Shown piece after piece: positions 1 to 6,642 of a stretch of DNA of 64,000 nt. This DNA is from Actinomycetota bacterium (GTDB lineage: Bacteria > Actinomycetota > AC-67). Every line of letters starts with the position of its first letter. The stretch's first letter is position 1. Both the position numbers and the translations under genes were made by a program. Where the stretch lies: positions 1,138-65,137 of the forward strand of contig DASWHR010000141.1 of assembly GCA_036398095.1 (NCBI GenBank). The letters run 5' to 3'. The notes beneath the pieces were generated by a model, which saw only the letters and a list, made by a program, of their open reading frames with translations, did no database searches and had not been told where the DNA came from.

Positions 1-1002
<1,002 letters not shown>

Positions 1003-2247
1003 TTAGGACCAGGCGGTGACGACGCGGGACAAGCCGTAGGCAAACACGATCAGCGTGACGGCCATGCCGGGCGCGTACAGGTGGTCGATCCATCGGCGCA
1101 GCACCAGACCCGCGGCGGCGAAGACGGCGGCGACCTGCAGGATGCGCGCGCCGCGCGCGAGAAGGCTGAACCAGGCGAATGCCCCGACACCGGTGCCGGC
1201 GTCGTCGGCTTGCAGCGCAAACACCTTGTAGGGGATGCCGCTCCAGGGCTGCGTCAGGATCCCGGCGGCGCCGCTCTGATTCATGCGCTGCACCGCCGAT
1301 GCTTGCATTCGTGCGGTGACGAGCGGCGCATGGTCGAGCATGCCGGCGGCGCCGAGCGCACCGAGGCCGTATGCGGCGAGCCCCCCGCACAGCGAGCCGG
1401 CGATGGCCGCCGCGGCGATGGGCAGGATGCGTCGCGGCGCGGCGAGCACGAGCGTGGCGACGGCGATGTCGGGAACGATCGGCCACGCGATCGCTTCGGC
1501 TGCGCCCCACACGAACGCCAGCGCGAGCGCCGCCCACGACTGCGCGAACACGCGGACGCACGCATGCAGCGTGCGACGCGGCTCGCAGACGGCCTCGGCT
1601 TCGGCTGCCGCGCGCGTCACCGCGGCTTCGGCGCGATCCGTGGTCTTGCGCGGATCCGCGCCGGCCTCGACCTGCATCGGCTCGCCGAAAACCACGGCGA
1701 CGGGGCGGCGACGCGGCAGGCGGCGGCCTTTGCCGAGCACGTCGCGCGTGCCGGCCAGGCCGACCGGCACGATCGTCGCGCCGTCGCGCGCGGCCAGATG
1801 AGCGACACCGGACTTGAACGCGCCGATGCGGCCGTCGGTCGTGCGCGTTCCTTCGGGGAAGAGCAGCACCGAGCGGCCGGCTCGCATCAGCGCATACGCG
1901 CGGTCCAGGCCTTCGCGGCCGCGGCGCGGAAACGGAAACGCGCCGACGATCGCGGTGGTGAGCGCTCCGAAGAAGCGGTTTGCGAAGAAATAGTCGGCTG
2001 CGGCGGCGGGCGCCAGGCGGTCGCGGTGGGGCCGAGGCAGCGCACGGATGATCAGTGGCGTGTCGGCGTGGCCGGCGTGGTTGGCGACGAAGATGACCTG
2101 GCCGTGCGGAACTCGCTCGCGGCCGATGACGCGCCGGCGCGCGCAGAAGACACGCACGAGCGGAAACAACACCAGCGCGCGAAGGATGGGCGTGAGCGGC
2201 GGTGGACGTAGCGCGGGCAGCGCGGGCGCCCCGTATTTGAGCGTCAT
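1003..2247 (-). CDS. 1-acyl-sn-glycerol-3-phosphate acyltransferase (PlsC-like) fused to a C-terminal DedA-like polytopic membrane domain. The ORF-track start at 2811 is an upstream artefact overlapping cdsA.
   Basis: Begins MTLKYGAP. Acyltransferase HxxxxD motif (FVANHAGHADTPLI) and FPEGTR motif. C-terminal about 180 aa hydrophobic with DedA-like motifs (WPIVPDIAVATLVLAA, GIPYKVFALQADDAG). ATGA overlap with the cdsA stop at 2244-2247. Confidence 0.75.
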   Translation of the reverse strand: MTLKYGAPALPALRPPPLTPILRALVLFPLVRVFCARRRVIGRERVPHGQVIFVANHAGHADTPLIIRALPRPHRDRLAPAAAADYFFANRFFGALTTAIVGAFPFPRRGREGLDRAYALMRAGRSVLLFPEGTRTTDGRIGAFKSGVAHLAARDGATIVPVGLAGTRDVLGKGRRLPRRRPVAVVFGEPMQVEAGADPRKTTDRAEAAVTRAAAEAEAVCEPRRTLHACVRVFAQSWAALALAFVWGAAEAIAWPIVPDIAVATLVLAAPRRILPIAAAAIAGSLCGGLAAYGLGALGAAGMLDHAPLVTARMQASAVQRMNQSGAAGILTQPWSGIPYKVFALQADDAGTGVGAFAWFSLLARGARILQVAAVFAAAGLVLRRWIDHLYAPGMAVTLIVFAYGLSRVVTAWS

Positions 2248-3143
2248 CCCCAGATCACCAGAACGGTATAGGTGACGGGCAGGACGACCAGCAGCGAGTC
2301 GATCCGGTCGAGCAGACCGCCGAAACCGGGCAGCCACGTGCCGGCCTCCTTGACGCCGAACTGTCGCTTGATGAGCGACTCGAGCAGGTCGCCCCAGACG
2401 CTGGCCAGCGCGACGGCGAGCGGCAGCGTCCAGCGCACGACCGGGCTGAGCGCCGCGGGGACTGCAAAGCTCATCAGCAGGAAGCCCAGGTATGCGCCGG
2501 CGACGTTGCCGGCGACGCCTTCCCAGGTCTTGTTCGGGCTGAGCCGCGGCGCGAGGCGATGCCGGCCGCAGAGCTTTCCGGCAGTGAACGCACAGACGTC
2601 GCTGGCGGCAACCGACGCGCCGAGCGCCAGCAGGATCGCCGCTCCCCCGTCCACATGCTGCTGGATCAAGATGAAGTAGGCGAGCAGCCACGGGATGTAG
2701 GCAAAGCCCAGCGCCGCGTACGCCAGATGCCGCACGCCGTCTTTGACGTCTTGGCTCAGCAGCGGCGGGATCGTGGCGGCGACCAGAAGGATCGGCGGCA
2801 TGGCTCGCCATATGGTCAGCGAGGTCGCCGCGATGGGCGCGCTTGCGATACCGGCCGCATACATGGCGTAGCGGTATCGCTTCGGAAGGCTCACGATGCG
2901 CGCGTACTCGCGCAGGCCGACGATGGTGAGCGCCTCGACGAACGCGACGGCGGCCCAGCGGCCGCCCATGACGGCGAGCCCGAAGATCGGCGCGGTGATC
3001 GCCCAGGTGCGCCAGCGCACGAACAGCACGCGCCGCGTCATCTCTTTCCAGTGACGTCGCTCGGCGATCGCGATCAGCCCGAGCGTGCCGCCGAGCGCGA
3101 GGCTCATGCGCGTCGCGCCTTCGACCGCGAGCCCGTCAAGCAT
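2244..3143 (-). CDS. cdsA: Phosphatidate cytidylyltransferase (CDP-diglyceride synthetase).
   Basis: SPNKTWEG, GDLLESLIKRQFGVKE and GFGGLLDRIDSLL motifs. The start is probably the ATG at 3143 (MLDGLAVEG), 5 nt after the pgsA stop. Confidence 0.85.
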   Translation of the reverse strand: MLDGLAVEGATRMSLALGGTLGLIAIAERRHWKEMTRRVLFVRWRTWAITAPIFGLAVMGGRWAAVAFVEALTIVGLREYARIVSLPKRYRYAMYAAGIASAPIAATSLTIWRAMPPILLVAATIPPLLSQDVKDGVRHLAYAALGFAYIPWLLAYFILIQQHVDGGAAILLALGASVAASDVCAFTAGKLCGRHRLAPRLSPNKTWEGVAGNVAGAYLGFLLMSFAVPAALSPVVRWTLPLAVALASVWGDLLESLIKRQFGVKEAGTWLPGFGGLLDRIDSLLVVLPVTYTVLVIWG

Positions 3144-3735
3144 CGAGACGTTCCTTGATCCGCACGACGCGCGCGGCCGCGGTGATCGCCGCGCCGGCAC
3201 CGATCGCGATGCAGGCGACCGTCCACGCGGCGGGCTGCGCGGGCGCGATCAGCGCGGCGACGCCGACGACGAGCATCCGGTCGGCTTTGCCCATCGGACC
3301 GCCGTAGTCGCGCTCGCCGGTGGCGGCGTGGGACACGATGCCGGCACACGACGACACTAGCGCCGCGGCGAGCGCGCCCAGCGCGAGCGCCGGATGGACG
3401 ATGAGCGCCAGCGGGGCGACAAAGAGCGTGTCGGCGGCACGGTCGCAGATCTCGTTGAGCGCGGCGCCCCACGGGCGGGCGGTGCCGGTGCGGCGCGCGA
3501 CCGAACCGTCGAGCGCGTTGAGCGCGATGCGGATCAGCGCGAGCGGGGCGACGGCGAGCCACAGCAGCGGCGCGGCCAACGCGGCGCCCGCCCAGATCGC
3601 CAGCGCGGCGACGCCGGCGGCGGCGACCGCCGCGTAGGTGAGCGCGTCGGCGGAGACCCGCATCGTGACGAGCAGATCCTCGGTGCCGCGCAGGCGGCGA
3701 ACGAACCAGGGCTTGATCGCATACAGACCGTTCAT
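3136..3735 (-). CDS. CDP-alcohol phosphatidyltransferase (PgsA-like phosphatidylglycerophosphate synthase).
   Basis: CDP-alcohol phosphatidyltransferase signature DGSVARRTGTARPWGAALNEICDRAAD, and multiple TM helices. Confidence 0.75.
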   Translation of the reverse strand: MNGLYAIKPWFVRRLRGTEDLLVTMRVSADALTYAAVAAAGVAALAIWAGAALAAPLLWLAVAPLALIRIALNALDGSVARRTGTARPWGAALNEICDRAADTLFVAPLALIVHPALALGALAAALVSSCAGIVSHAATGERDYGGPMGKADRMLVVGVAALIAPAQPAAWTVACIAIGAGAAITAAARVVRIKERLDA

Positions 3736-3956
3736 GCCCCGATGATCGGCGCCGGGCGGCGCGGCCGGTAGACGGCTTCGGCCTTATCCGGGATGCGTAC
3801 CCAACTCATTTCGAGTCTGGGTACTTCCGGCAGGCCGACCCGAATGCCGGCCGGAATGCCGAACTCGGCGGCTCTGAGACATTTTGGCAAATTGGCAGAC
3901 TGGCGATTCGCCAACAACTCGGATACGATGACCTCTCGACAAAGGAGCGCGAGACG

Positions 3957-4238
3957 ATGCGACTCGTAAGCATGAGCGACACCGGACGGCTCACCCTCCC
4001 TGCGGAGACCCGGCGGGAGTTGGGGCTCGATGGGGAGGCGGAGTTCGAGGTCGAGGTGGACCGGGAGAACGACGCGCTGATCCTGCGGCCCGCCGTGGTC
4101 CTTCGCCGCGAGGACGCTTGGGCGTACACGGCCAAGCACCGGCGTCTGCTCGCCCGGGCCCACGCCGACTCCCGAGCCGGTCGCGTGGGGAAGCTGACCG
4201 AAGCCCAGCTCGCCGCGCGCACCAAGCGCGGCAGGTAA
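3957..4238 (+). CDS. AbrB/MazE/SpoVT-family antitoxin-like DNA-binding protein.
   Basis: Swapped-hairpin motif RLTLPAETRRELGLDGEAEFEVEV. 93 aa, located 9 nt upstream of the toxin-like ORF. Confidence 0.6.
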   Translation: MRLVSMSDTGRLTLPAETRRELGLDGEAEFEVEVDRENDALILRPAVVLRREDAWAYTAKHRRLLARAHADSRAGRVGKLTEAQLAARTKRGR

Positions 4239-4247
4239 CGAGTTCCG

Positions 4248-4523
4248 ATGGTCTCCGAGTATCGGACCATCGATTTCACGGATACCTTCCTCGTCACATT
4301 CGCCGCCAAGGACCTCAACGCCTCGGACAGAAGCGCGATCCTGAAGGCGCTTCGGCTGCTCGATGAGGACGAGCGCCATCCGTCGCTTCGCGTCCACAAG
4401 CTTGCCGGCGACCGCGCCGGTTCCTGGTCGGCGTCGGCGTCCCGAACGCTTCGCGTGACGTTCGAGCGGCTCGAAGGCGGGGGCAAGCGCATGCTGACCT
4501 ACTCGAAGCACTACGACCGATGA
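4248..4523 (+). CDS. RelE/ParE-superfamily (HigB-like) toxin.
   Basis: HKLAGDRAGSWSASASRTLRVTFE resembles the HigB/RelE core (HKLxGxxxGxWSxxxxxxxRxxF). 91 aa, immediately downstream of the AbrB-type gene. Confidence 0.5.
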   Translation: MVSEYRTIDFTDTFLVTFAAKDLNASDRSAILKALRLLDEDERHPSLRVHKLAGDRAGSWSASASRTLRVTFERLEGGGKRMLTYSKHYDR

Positions 4524-4533
4524 CGTGCCGCCG

Positions 4534-6642
4534 CTACCCGATGCAGCCCAGCGCCGCGACCCAGGGGAACGGCTTGTTGCACGCGCTGTTGGACAACCCT
4601 CCTTGCCCGGCGATGTTCAGCGCCGCGACCCGGTAGGCGTAGTTCTGCAGCACCGTGCGTCCCGAGTCGGTGAAGACCGTCGTCAAACCGACCTGGGCGA
4701 TGAACGTCTCGGGTCCGCCGGCGTCGCTGCGGTAGATCTTGAAGCCGCTGACCGGCGCGCCGCCGTTGCTCGCCGGCAGCGCCCAGTTCAGCCGGATCTG
4801 GCCGACGCCGCCGCCCGGGCTCGCCGTCAGGTTCTGCGGCGGCGACGGCACGTCGAATGTCGTCGCCGACTGCTCGATCGAGGGCGGCCCTTCTCCGGCC
4901 GAGTTGATCGCCGCGATCCGGTAGTAGCGCGTCGCGGCGCTCGGCAAGCCCGCGTGCGTGAACTGCAACGGCGACGGCGCGACCTGCGCGAGCGGCGTCG
5001 TGGAGCCCCCCGGCGCCTCGCCGACGTAGATCCGGTAGCCGGTCAGCGGCAGCCCGCCGGTCGAGGCCGGCGGCGTCCACGACAGCCGGATCTGCCCGGC
5101 TCCGGGCCCGGCGGTCGCGGATAGCGACGCCGGCGCGGACGGAACCGACTGCGTGGTCGCCGAGCGCACCGGCGCCGGCTCGCCTTCACCGTTCGCATTG
5201 AGCGCGCTCACCTTGTAGAACCGCGTCACGCCGCTGGCCAACCCCGACTCGGTGTAGGCAAGCGTCGACGCGGGCACGGTCGCGATCACGGCAAGCGAAC
5301 CCGACGTGGGTCCGCCGTAGACGCGATACGACGCCACCGGCGAGCCGCCGTCGGACACCGGCGGTCCCCAATCGAGCGTGATCGACGATGCGCCCGGCGT
5401 CAGCGTGAACGAGGTCGGCGGGCCCGGCAGGATGCTGGTCGTGGCGCTCGCCTCGTTGGATTGCGGCCCTTCGCCGCTGGCGTTGACCGCGCTCACCGCG
5501 TAGAAGCGCGTGACCCCGCTGCCCAGGCCCGACTCGGTGTCGGTGAGCGTCGTGCCGGACACGGTCGCGATCACGGCGAGCGAACCGGATGAGGATCCGC
5601 CGAAGACGCGATACGAGGTGACCGGCGAGCCGCCGGAAGACGCCGGCGCTTGCCAGTCCAGCCGGATCTGCCCGGACTGGCCGGTCGCGATCAAGTTCTG
5701 CGGCGCCGACGGCGGCGTCGGCGGATCGCTCAGCTCGACCACGACGTTGGGGCGCGACAGCATCGTCGTGCCCGGCGAGCGAATTCGCATGCCGAACGTT
5801 TCGGTTGGCTCGGGCATGCCGTCATCGATCAGCGTCACCGCGATCGACTCGGTCGTCTCCCCGGGGTCGAAGCTCAAGGTGCCCGTGGCGGCGACGTAGT
5901 CGGACCCTGCCTGGGCCGTGCCGTCGACGGTCGAATAGCCGATCGTGTCGCTGCCCGACGTGTTGGTCCGCGTCACCGTGACCGTGACCGTCCCGTCGTT
6001 CTCCAGCGCCGGGTACACGGTCGCGTCGAACCCGGCTGAGCCGCACCCGCAGCTCCCGTTCACGCGCGCGTTGTTGCGCGGAGCGGGCGCGGCGAAGAAG
6101 AAGTCGGCTGCCGAATTGTTGGTGTCGTCGGGCTGGTCGAGCACGGATGGGTTGCCGCGCGCGATGGTTCGCTTCATGGCAGACGAGTCGATCAACCCTT
6201 CCGATGCGTTGAACGGTGTCCCGGCGTCGCCGCCGCCGTAGGAGCCCCACGACACGCAGTCGATCGTCCCCGCGAAACAGACCTTGCCGCCGGCCTTCGG
6301 AATCACCGGGGTCATCGCCAGGTCGGCGGACACGCCGAACAGCGTCTGCGCGTCGGCGGTCGCGACCAGGATCGTGTCTTGGTTGACGCCGTTCAAAACG
6401 TTGGAACCGAACGTGAACGTTCCGACCACGCTACCGTTCTCGTCGGAGACCTCGACGCTTTGACCGCTCACGAAATTCTGCGAACCCGACCACATTTGCA
6501 GCATGATGTACTGCGCGTCGGGGTCGGCTGCCGTTCCGGCGAACACCTCCCGGATCATCATCAGATGAAACGAGGCCTTCGCGGGCGTCGCTACCCCCGC
6601 CAGCACCAAAGCAACCGTCGCCGCAACCGTGGCTCTCCGCAT
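4534..6642 (-). CDS. Secreted multidomain protein with an N-terminal lamin-tail-like domain, a Calx-beta domain and four fibronectin type III repeats.
   Basis: Signal peptide MRRATVAATVALVLAGVATPAKA. Calx-beta motif (SDYVAATGTLSFDPGETTESIAVTLIDD). Four FN3 repeats (PSAPQNL..GQIRLDW..P...GGSPVTSYRV). Confidence 0.8.
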   Translation of the reverse strand: MRRATVAATVALVLAGVATPAKASFHLMMIREVFAGTAADPDAQYIMLQMWSGSQNFVSGQSVEVSDENGSVVGTFTFGSNVLNGVNQDTILVATADAQTLFGVSADLAMTPVIPKAGGKVCFAGTIDCVSWGSYGGGDAGTPFNASEGLIDSSAMKRTIARGNPSVLDQPDDTNNSAADFFFAAPAPRNNARVNGSCGCGSAGFDATVYPALENDGTVTVTVTRTNTSGSDTIGYSTVDGTAQAGSDYVAATGTLSFDPGETTESIAVTLIDDGMPEPTETFGMRIRSPGTTMLSRPNVVVELSDPPTPPSAPQNLIATGQSGQIRLDWQAPASSGGSPVTSYRVFGGSSSGSLAVIATVSGTTLTDTESGLGSGVTRFYAVSAVNASGEGPQSNEASATTSILPGPPTSFTLTPGASSITLDWGPPVSDGGSPVASYRVYGGPTSGSLAVIATVPASTLAYTESGLASGVTRFYKVSALNANGEGEPAPVRSATTQSVPSAPASLSATAGPGAGQIRLSWTPPASTGGLPLTGYRIYVGEAPGGSTTPLAQVAPSPLQFTHAGLPSAATRYYRIAAINSAGEGPPSIEQSATTFDVPSPPQNLTASPGGGVGQIRLNWALPASNGGAPVSGFKIYRSDAGGPETFIAQVGLTTVFTDSGRTVLQNYAYRVAALNIAGQGGLSNSACNKPFPWVAALGCIG

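Follow-up and report, generated by a model that had tools for sequence, protein, structure and literature searches.

The locus considered here lies near the beginning of a window of 64,000 nucleotides (contig DASWHR010000141.1 of assembly GCA_036398095.1, positions 1,138 to 65,137 of the forward strand) from an Actinomycetota bacterium of the GTDB lineage AC-67; the window is the whole stretch that was analysed, and positions are counted from its first letter. The list of open reading frames (ORFs) and direct reading of the sequence place three genes, overlapping and all on the minus strand, between 3735 and 1003. They encode a divergent CDP-alcohol phosphatidyltransferase (gene 1), the phosphatidate cytidylyltransferase CdsA (gene 2) and a protein in which an acyltransferase is continued by a polytopic membrane domain (gene 3); their features are collected in table 1. 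An initial annotation, made from the sequence alone, had described a translationally coupled phospholipid operon, pgsA-cdsA-plsC, chained by overlaps or gaps of 4-5 nt, with PlsC fused to a DedA-family domain. The overlapping arrangement supports the coupled operon, and the ATGA at the junction of cdsA and gene 3 is exactly as described (2247..2244), whereas gene 1 and cdsA overlap by 8 nt and not by 4-5. Gene calls overlap likewise in homologous cassettes. The ORF of gene 2 reaches upstream to a GTG at 3200, the ATG at 3143 being an in-frame start, and gene 3 encodes 414 amino acids plus the stop codon, not the 415 first given.

Table 1. Features of the three-gene locus, with positions in the window.
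Feature	Position	Strand	Details
Gene 1, divergent CDP-alcohol phosphatidyltransferase	3136..3735	-	199 aa; similar to phosphatidylinositol phosphate (PIP) synthase
Variant signature N73-x2-D76-G77-x2-A80-R81-x8-G90-x3-N94-E95-x2-D98	3442..3519	-	alignment to M. jannaschii PssA 7POW
Overlap of gene 1 stop and cdsA start, ATGCTTGA	3136..3143	-	8 nt; sequence reading
Gene 2, CdsA (phosphatidate cytidylyltransferase)	2244..3143	-	299 aa from in-frame ATG 3143
Overlap of cdsA stop and gene 3 start, ATGA	2244..2247	-	4 nt; sequence reading
Gene 3, acyltransferase and YqaA-like fusion	1003..2247	-	414 aa; stop codon 1005..1003
Acyltransferase domain of lysophospholipid acyltransferase (LPLAT)/PlsC type, residues ~19-198	1654..2193	-	includes N-terminal hydrophobic helix 19-34
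Catalytic HX4D motif, H57-A-G-H-A-D62	2062..2079	-	H57, H60 and D62 in at least 90% of 41 homologues
Charged helical linker, residues 199-226	1570..1653	-	hydropathy -0.56; 4 K/R, 4 D/E
YqaA-like DedA-superfamily membrane domain, residues 227-414	1006..1569	-	hhalign, PF09335 in relatives, BFVD, AlphaFold2
E251, acidic, immediately ahead of the tip of hairpin 1 (AEAxxWP)	1495..1497	-	150 of 150 family sequences
K341, second hairpin (GIPYK)	1225..1227	-	147 of 150 family sequences
R365 and R368 (ARGxR), helix after the second hairpin	1144..1155	-	each in 149 of 150 family sequences

Gene 2 matches PF01148 (CTP_transf_1) above threshold (E 4e-54, 184.6 bits) over profile positions 2-263 of 264. 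In gene 3, residues 38-163 match PF01553 (Acyltransferase) with E 3.4e-22 and 79.1 bits against a cutoff of 23, and besides the HX4D motif an FPEGTR motif is present at residues 130-135, of which P131, E132, G133, T134 and R135 are each retained by 90% or more of the 41 homologues. The PlsC of T. maritima (5KYM) is the sole PDB sequence match of this domain (E 2.5e-11) and also comes first when the full model is searched with Foldseek (E 6e-8, target-normalised TM-score 0.64-0.66), followed by glycerol-3-phosphate acyltransferases, PatA and LpxM. The more specific models fit less well: TIGR00530 (1-acylglycerol-3-phosphate O-acyltransferase) gives 60.2 bits, below its cutoff of 102.95, and the match to the Aas-type NCBIfam model NF006386 is weak (6e-12). 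Because 5KYM is the best match by sequence and by fold, TIGR00530 stays below its cutoff and the Aas-type similarity is weak, the N-terminal domain is classified, by homology, as an LPLAT acyltransferase of PlsC type, which bears out the PlsC-like assignment made initially. The likeness to 5KYM covers residues ~40-216, and both motifs are shared. The two proteins differ, however, in that the N-terminal membrane-binding region of gene 3 is shorter (the alignment starts at residue 40 of the query and 66 of 5KYM) and in that gene 3 adds a polytopic C-terminal domain of 187 amino acids. The nearest non-fusion relatives of the acyltransferase domain (P0114, P0117 and P0118, 47-49% identity) carry a PP-binding (carrier protein) domain upstream; JGI names them long-chain acyl-CoA synthetases, and all three are truncated, on contigs of 1.1-1.7 kb.

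The extra C-terminal domain that had been noticed on the acyltransferase is real, hydrophobic and helical, and comprises ~187 amino acids (about residues 227-414). A protein search found more than 100 homologues of 380-440 amino acids with ~90-100% query coverage and 33-99% identity, which come from many independent assemblies, mostly metagenome-assembled genomes (MAGs) labelled Actinomycetota. An identical protein of 414 residues, from a contig of 68.6 kb, is deposited at NCBI as HEX9697588.1 under the name 'lysophospholipid acyltransferase family protein [Actinomycetota bacterium]' and is also found in ENA and JGI records. Conserved blocks lie in both halves of the fusion in an alignment of 41 homologues, and with this alignment AlphaFold2 (AF2) models the whole chain at a mean predicted local distance difference test (pLDDT) score of 94 and a predicted TM-score (pTM) of 0.85; the linker helix 199-220 is modelled at high pLDDT, and linker and both domains exceed 90. 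Although split versions of both genes exist in other lineages, the notion that a frameshift or assembly error joined plsC to a separate membrane-protein gene is practically untenable, given the uninterrupted ORF, the identical protein in independent NCBI, ENA and JGI records, the full-length homologues from many assemblies and the AF2 model.

The identity of the C-terminal domain is less directly read. Neither PF09335 (SNARE_assoc/DedA) nor any other Pfam or NCBIfam model matched the C-terminal region at E<=10, whether the whole protein or the isolated residues ~225-414 were searched, so the PF09335 match expected for residues 236-415 is absent. A sequence-profile search of the PDB with the domain gave chance matches only, and Foldseek of the PDB with the domain model gave nothing at E below 2. 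Its affiliation emerges from relatives and from profile-profile comparison. A search of 1.84 billion cluster representatives with a profile built from 26 C-terminal domains recovered 3,074 proteins at E<=1e-3. Among the best 142 newly listed of these, 46 have an acyltransferase domain and five more are likely fragments of such fusions, 89 are standalone proteins of ~165-260 amino acids, one is a fusion with a UbiA prenyltransferase and one has an unassigned N-terminal extension. When 60 standalone relatives were scanned singly, PF09335 (VTT_dom) appeared at E<=0.1 in 14 of them (best 1.9e-7), and it was the only Pfam family to recur in more than one member; in all five relatives with listed PF09335 scores the score is below the 33.9-bit cutoff. 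Comparison of a 150-sequence family profile with E. coli YqaA by hhalign gave a probability of 93.9% and E 1.5e-7 over 125 columns, covering YqaA residues 7-134 of 142, while ten unrelated membrane proteins, reversed YqaA and ten shuffles used as controls all had E>=0.14. The single YqaA sequence sufficed for this comparison; a homologue search seeded with YqaA returned only enterobacterial proteins of 85-96% identity, with little profile diversity. A fold search of BFVD with the domain model placed two Megaviridae proteins annotated 'SNARE associated Golgi protein' at the top of 49 matches, and the JGI COG pipeline labels some family members 'PlsC / membrane protein YqaA with SNARE-associated domain'. 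Membership in the YqjA type or the YdjX/YdjZ type of DedA protein was rejected, the E values for YqjA, YdjX and YdjZ being 0.047, 0.21 and 0.13. The domain is thus assigned, from its sequence relationships, to a divergent YqaA-like branch (COG1238) of the DedA superfamily. The DedA identification made initially therefore holds at the level of the superfamily, by profile-profile comparison, relatives and fold, although it is specifically YqaA-like and is not supported by a PF09335 match of its own.

Modelling by AF2 (pLDDT 95 for the C-terminal domain modelled separately) gives a helix-Pro-helix hairpin (238-253/259-269), a transmembrane (TM) helix at 271-297, an amphipathic helix at 312-336, a second hairpin around QPWSGIPYKV (333-342) and two further TM helices (354-382 and 387-413), a predicted pattern that would fit the two-hairpin plan of DedA proteins. 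Ten positions (W247, E251, P256, G288, Q333, G337, P339, K341, R365 and R368) are invariant among the 41 fusion homologues. DedA proteins are characterised by conserved membrane-embedded charges, acidic in hairpin 1 and basic in hairpin 2 or beyond it, and E251, K341, R365 and R368 provide these; R365 and R368 align with the K and R of 'GKALRY' in YqaA. Acidic and basic residues have been described as essential, for substrate and proton coupling, in COG0586 DedA flippases (PMC10127716), and the parallel with the four invariant residues therefore favours a role in transport.

YqaA is the only E. coli DedA paralogue matched by the family profile, and the two share a helix-Pro-helix first hairpin with an acidic residue, a TM helix rich in GS/GG, a second hairpin and K/R-x2-R in the next helix. 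Several differences set the domain apart from YqaA and COG1238. First, it escapes PF09335 detection; second, it is ~45 residues longer, with additional helices at both ends, the C-terminal one a TM helix; third, it keeps the near-invariant K341 in the second hairpin, whereas the second re-entrant helix of COG1238 is almost devoid of positive residues (PMC10127716). Moreover, COG1238 proteins are 99% single-domain and rare in Actinobacteria (Todor et al., PMC10127716), whereas this domain is joined, in one protein or in a gene cluster, with enzymes of lipid synthesis.

Gene 1 had been called pgsA, and this identification is rejected. Its match to PF01066 (CDP-OH_P_transf) is sub-threshold (E 0.009, 16.9 bits, cutoff 22), and its best NCBIfam models, archaetidylinositol phosphate (AIP) synthase NF040950 (1.2e-17) and PIP synthase NF045883 (2.4e-11), are both below cutoff. 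No model or structure of PgsA (phosphatidylglycerophosphate synthase) is among the NCBIfam and PDB matches listed for gene 1. A profile of ten cassette homologues (A4) matches the mycobacterial PIP synthase PgsA1 (6H53) over its full length (E 2.2e-17), with 6WM5 and 5D91 next, and places gene 1 closest to PIP/AIP synthases. In the canonical signature D-x2-DG-x2-AR-x8-G-x3-D-x3-D, both the first aspartate (D1) and the third (D3) are replaced by Asn in gene 1, at positions 73 and 94. The replacement recurs in the group: all ten cassette homologues have Asn at D3, within an invariant N-E, and N or A at D1, and in metagenome copies of the cassette, including split cassettes of Acidobacteriota type, D1/D3 is N/N in 20 of 21 parsable motifs. 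Asn variants of the enzyme also occur at L001:4414-5109, L003:4506-5225 and L013:3703-4299 and in metagenome loci (the L numbers denote individual loci). Gene 1 resembles PgsA1 (6H53, 6WM5, 5D91) in protein size and in its full-length best match, and differs from it by the Asn residues and by scores below the Pfam and NCBIfam thresholds. The genomic partners differ as well; the mycobacterial pgsA1 operon comprises pgsA1, a phosphatidylinositol mannoside (PIM) acyltransferase and pimA.

The neighbourhood of the YqaA-like domain was followed across genomes and metagenomes. A GTDB genome scan with a 6-sequence alignment yielded 12 loci, which were annotated by local hidden Markov models, and a metagenome scan added 80 annotated loci; genome and metagenome loci were collected by the short peptide patterns QP[WFL][ST]GIPYK and GIPYKV[FY]A and sample the family with a bias. 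The order CDP-alcohol transferase, CdsA, fusion is repeated on the long contigs L001 and L003 (the latter 1.24 Mb), and fused cassettes are present in L008, L009, L010, L012 (a Mycobacteriales MAG) and L014 (a Jiangellaceae MAG). Other relatives have separate genes. In L013, an Actinomycetota MAG, acyltransferase, CDP-alcohol transferase and cdsA share a strand and a standalone YqaA-like gene of 193 amino acids is divergent. In L011 (3346-5540), also an Actinomycetota MAG, the CDP-alcohol transferase and cdsA are accompanied by a YqaA-like gene and the acyltransferase domain is absent; the YqaA-like ORF of L011 is apparently frameshifted near its 3' end. Among the 80 metagenome loci, six have the fused acyltransferase::YqaA-like gene, 17 have separate acyltransferase, cdsA or CDP-alcohol transferase genes within 4 kb on the same strand and 16 have them within 4 kb in divergent orientation; six have none of these genes despite at least 3 kb on both flanks, and in 35 the flanks are too short to judge. 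The 33 separate-gene loci use three other gene orders, which makes at least four overall, and exact-sequence look-up identified two of the divergent type as Candidatus Sulfotelmatobacter sp. and Terriglobales bacterium, both Acidobacteriota. HKM85189.1 is an example of a standalone homologue from Terriglobales.

Standalone relatives extend further. In loci of candidate phyla radiation (CPR) type (Staskawiczbacteria, Saccharibacteria) and in a MAG of 38% GC they adjoin plsY-cdsA operons. Standalone genes placed beside plsY-cdsA or after cdsA are L015:2446-3207, L016:4827-5585, L018:~4800-5549 and L021:430-1011; in L021 the gene follows cdsA directly and an acyltransferase is absent. L015 and L016 share two upstream genes for uncharacterised membrane proteins, of 220-240 and 118-135 amino acids. 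Taken together, partners that are fused in some lineages, split in others and shuffled yet persistent as neighbours are classic evidence of functional partnership. The fusion is thus one form of a four-component module, which consists of the LPLAT acyltransferase, CdsA, the PIP-synthase-like CDP-alcohol transferase with its two Asn replacements and the YqaA-like protein. A second kind of partner was seen in two places. The protein P0258 (L019:78-1658) joins a UbiA prenyltransferase, with weak similarity to ChlG/DGGGP-synthase, to a YqaA-like domain, and in L016, the 38%-GC MAG, a UbiA prenyltransferase gene (3988-4848) overlaps the start of the YqaA-like gene. Because a homologue search seeded with P0258 recovered P0258 alone, the UbiA fusion is a single-cluster lead; the pairing hints that the clade may generally partner enzymes which attach hydrocarbon chains to lipid backbones.

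What function does the fused domain perform? The architecture, the homologies of the parts, the conservation of fusion and module, the gene linkage and the invariant charged residues are established. The best explanation, to which we give a probability of roughly 0.45, would be that synthesis of an anionic lipid is coupled to its movement across the bilayer. Within a two-domain protein of the inner membrane, the acyltransferase, facing the cytoplasm, would convert lysophosphatidate to phosphatidate, CdsA would activate it to CDP-diacylglycerol, and the PIP-synthase-like enzyme would add a head group, probably of inositol-phosphate type, to yield an anionic phospholipid in the cytoplasmic leaflet. 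The YqaA-like domain would then move the product lipid, or an anionic intermediate, between the leaflets by means of its two putative re-entrant hairpins and of E251, K341, R365 and R368. Synthesis and transbilayer distribution would be physically coupled, a design logic like that of MprF. What the enzymes act on, whether and in which direction the domain transports, and which lipid it moves are what we infer from the parts. The coupling of phosphatidate synthesis to lipid translocation that the initial annotation had suggested is likewise something that we infer, and the conserved gene linkage strengthens it. DedA proteins have been implicated in the transport of phospholipids and of polyprenyl phosphates (PMC11804483).

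Several observations weigh against this explanation. The putative translocator is attached to the enzyme that opens the pathway and not to the one that closes it, which would fit delivery of a substrate at least as well as export of a product. Because two canonical aspartates are missing, the CDP-alcohol transferase of gene 1 may be inactive or may do different chemistry. In some loci lipid genes are missing: this is so in 6 of the 16 metagenome loci whose flanks extend 3 kb or more on either side, and also in L017 and L020. Because L003 carries a second, standalone PF01553 acyltransferase gene (764-1507, 247 amino acids, ~5 kb upstream of the cassette), the fusion may not be the sole PlsC-type enzyme in such genomes. 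The two viral fold matches in BFVD (probability 0.99 and 0.80, TM-score 0.53 and 0.47) have non-significant E values of 0.19 and 0.48, and YqaA-type DedA proteins have no known substrate (PMC10127716).

An unlikely alternative dispenses with transport: the domain would be an anchor, a scaffold or a lipid-presenting module that holds PlsC, CdsA and the CDP-alcohol transferase together, phosphatidate being handed on within one leaflet. The membrane-binding region at the N-terminus of the acyltransferase is shorter than that of T. maritima PlsC, so the C-terminal domain could serve as the anchor; the tight four-way gene linkage fits a complex, and the pTM of 0.85 suggests a fixed geometry between the domains. 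However, a simple anchor would not be expected to keep a buried E, K and two R invariant across 150 sequences of 25-60% identity, nor to persist as an independent gene in the split arrangements, and the DedA proteins studied so far are tied to lipid flipping or scrambling (PMC10127716; PMC11804483, citing PetA).

The module may also be compared with lysophospholipid salvage of the LplT-Aas kind, in which the domain would flip lysophospholipid or lysophosphatidate, taken from the outer leaflet or the environment, to the cytoplasmic face and the fused acyltransferase would re-acylate it. Product distribution is favoured over salvage because CdsA and the CDP-alcohol transferase, neither of which is needed for lysolipid repair, are constant partners, which suggests a pathway of de novo synthesis. 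L011 and L021, moreover, have the domain after cdsA without an acyltransferase, and the fusion has no acyl-ACP (acyl carrier protein) synthetase domain. Salvage is improbable in view of these points, and it keeps its share of probability because the domain is joined to the enzyme at the start of the pathway. Dependence on host lipids is commonly assumed for CPR bacteria, among which standalone relatives occur. The Aas-type match to NF006386 (6e-12) and the PP-binding proteins with an acyltransferase (47-49% identity) among the nearest non-fusion relatives also point in that direction, as does the direct fusion of translocator and acyltransferase, which recalls that of LplT and Aas in some bacteria (PMC11416262).

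It is very doubtful that the cargo lies outside the pathway, be it a polyprenyl phosphate, an ion or proton or another lipid, with an indirect linkage to phospholipid genes. The profile matches YqaA and not YqjA, which is of the undecaprenyl phosphate flippase type, although COG0586 DedA proteins do flip undecaprenyl phosphate (PMC10127716). The loci without nearby lipid genes, the UbiA fusion P0258 and the domain gene directly after UbiA in L016 would suit such a cargo, but the UbiA fusion is one cluster on a 1.7-kb contig and the dominant partners are the acyltransferase, CdsA and the CDP-alcohol transferase, in four gene orders and at least two phyla.

Coupled synthesis and movement of an anionic lipid can also be taken one step further, to a speculative claim that is probably too strong: the YqaA-like clade would be a dedicated glycerophospholipid translocator, either scramblase or flippase, and an integral fourth subunit of a self-contained synthesis module found from Actinomycetota to Acidobacteriota, with relatives next to plsY-cdsA in CPR bacteria. 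If this were true, it would be the first bacterial DedA-type protein hard-wired to de novo phospholipid synthesis, and a substrate class would be identified for the YqaA branch.

The surroundings of the operon are as follows. An enolase gene on the same strand starts at 912, 90 nt downstream of gene 3, and occupies 1-912 (-), running past the edge of the window. The neighbourhood of L001 matches at this point and continues with divIC, an S1-domain gene, DUF501 and ppx, within the actinobacterial synteny mazG...eno-divIC-DUF501-ppx. Immediately upstream of the operon, two small genes lie on the opposite strand, at 3957-4238 (+) and 4248-4523 (+). The product of the first contains an antitoxin domain of MazE/AbrB type (PF04014, E 1e-5); for the second (91 amino acids) Pfam gives no match. 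Together they are probably a toxin-antitoxin pair. Beyond them, at 4534-6642 (-), a predicted secreted protein of 702 amino acids has a Calx-beta domain and four fibronectin type III repeats. Rfam gave no match within the window, and scans of positions 700-4300 for sigma-70 promoters and intrinsic terminators found none, which is unsurprising at ~70% GC. Long ORFs in other frames and strands (352-2211 +, 923-1561 -, 3732-4511 - and others) were set aside as high-GC artefacts, those on the plus strand because the minus-strand genes they overlap have strong family matches.

By what route bacteria supply the outer leaflet of their cytoplasmic membrane with new phospholipids has long been asked. 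The natural fusion turns this question into a testable hypothesis, that an anionic glycerophospholipid or a precursor of it is what this DedA-like clade acts on, and the split genes of other phyla with their constant neighbours back it. Two blind spots of annotation are pinpointed as well: a DedA-related family of ~3,000 clusters at 50% identity that PF09335 misses, and a clade of CDP-alcohol phosphatidyltransferases with Asn at two metal-binding aspartate positions. Among the organisms with the module are soil Actinomycetota and Acidobacteriota that are abundant and uncultured, and little is known about the biology of their membrane lipids.

Neither a PlsC-DedA fusion nor the four-component module was described in the literature searched, in agreement with the earlier remark that no characterised example was known. 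The parts, on the other hand, belong to known superfamilies, and the coupling of an enzyme to a translocator has precedents. A part in the transbilayer distribution of glycerophospholipids has been proposed for B. subtilis PetA and further DedA proteins, and it has been observed before that DedA genes can lie close to genes of lipid synthesis (pgpP) (PMC11804483). In contrast to the domain described here, these belong to other DedA branches, lack an enzyme fusion and are detectable by PF09335. LplT and Aas are encoded by adjacent genes in some bacteria and by a single ORF in others (PMC11416262). The likeness is functional only, a lipid flippase working with an acyltransferase of the LPLAT family, to which the present protein has a weak Aas-type match. 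LplT is a transporter of the major facilitator superfamily (MFS) and Aas has an acyl-ACP synthetase, whereas Pfam detects neither an MFS nor an AMP-binding domain in the fusion, and the present module includes CdsA and a CDP-alcohol transferase, which repair does not need.

The closest architectural precedent is MprF, which combines an aminoacyl-phosphatidylglycerol synthase and a flippase/scramblase domain in one chain (PMC11980842). The folds are unrelated in both halves, and MprF modifies a finished lipid, whereas the gene 3 protein would act at the start of the pathway; transport has been shown for MprF and is predicted for the gene 3 protein. What the two have in common is the arrangement itself, in which a cytoplasmic lipid-modifying enzyme and a lipid-translocating, or in gene 3 putatively translocating, membrane domain form a single polypeptide.

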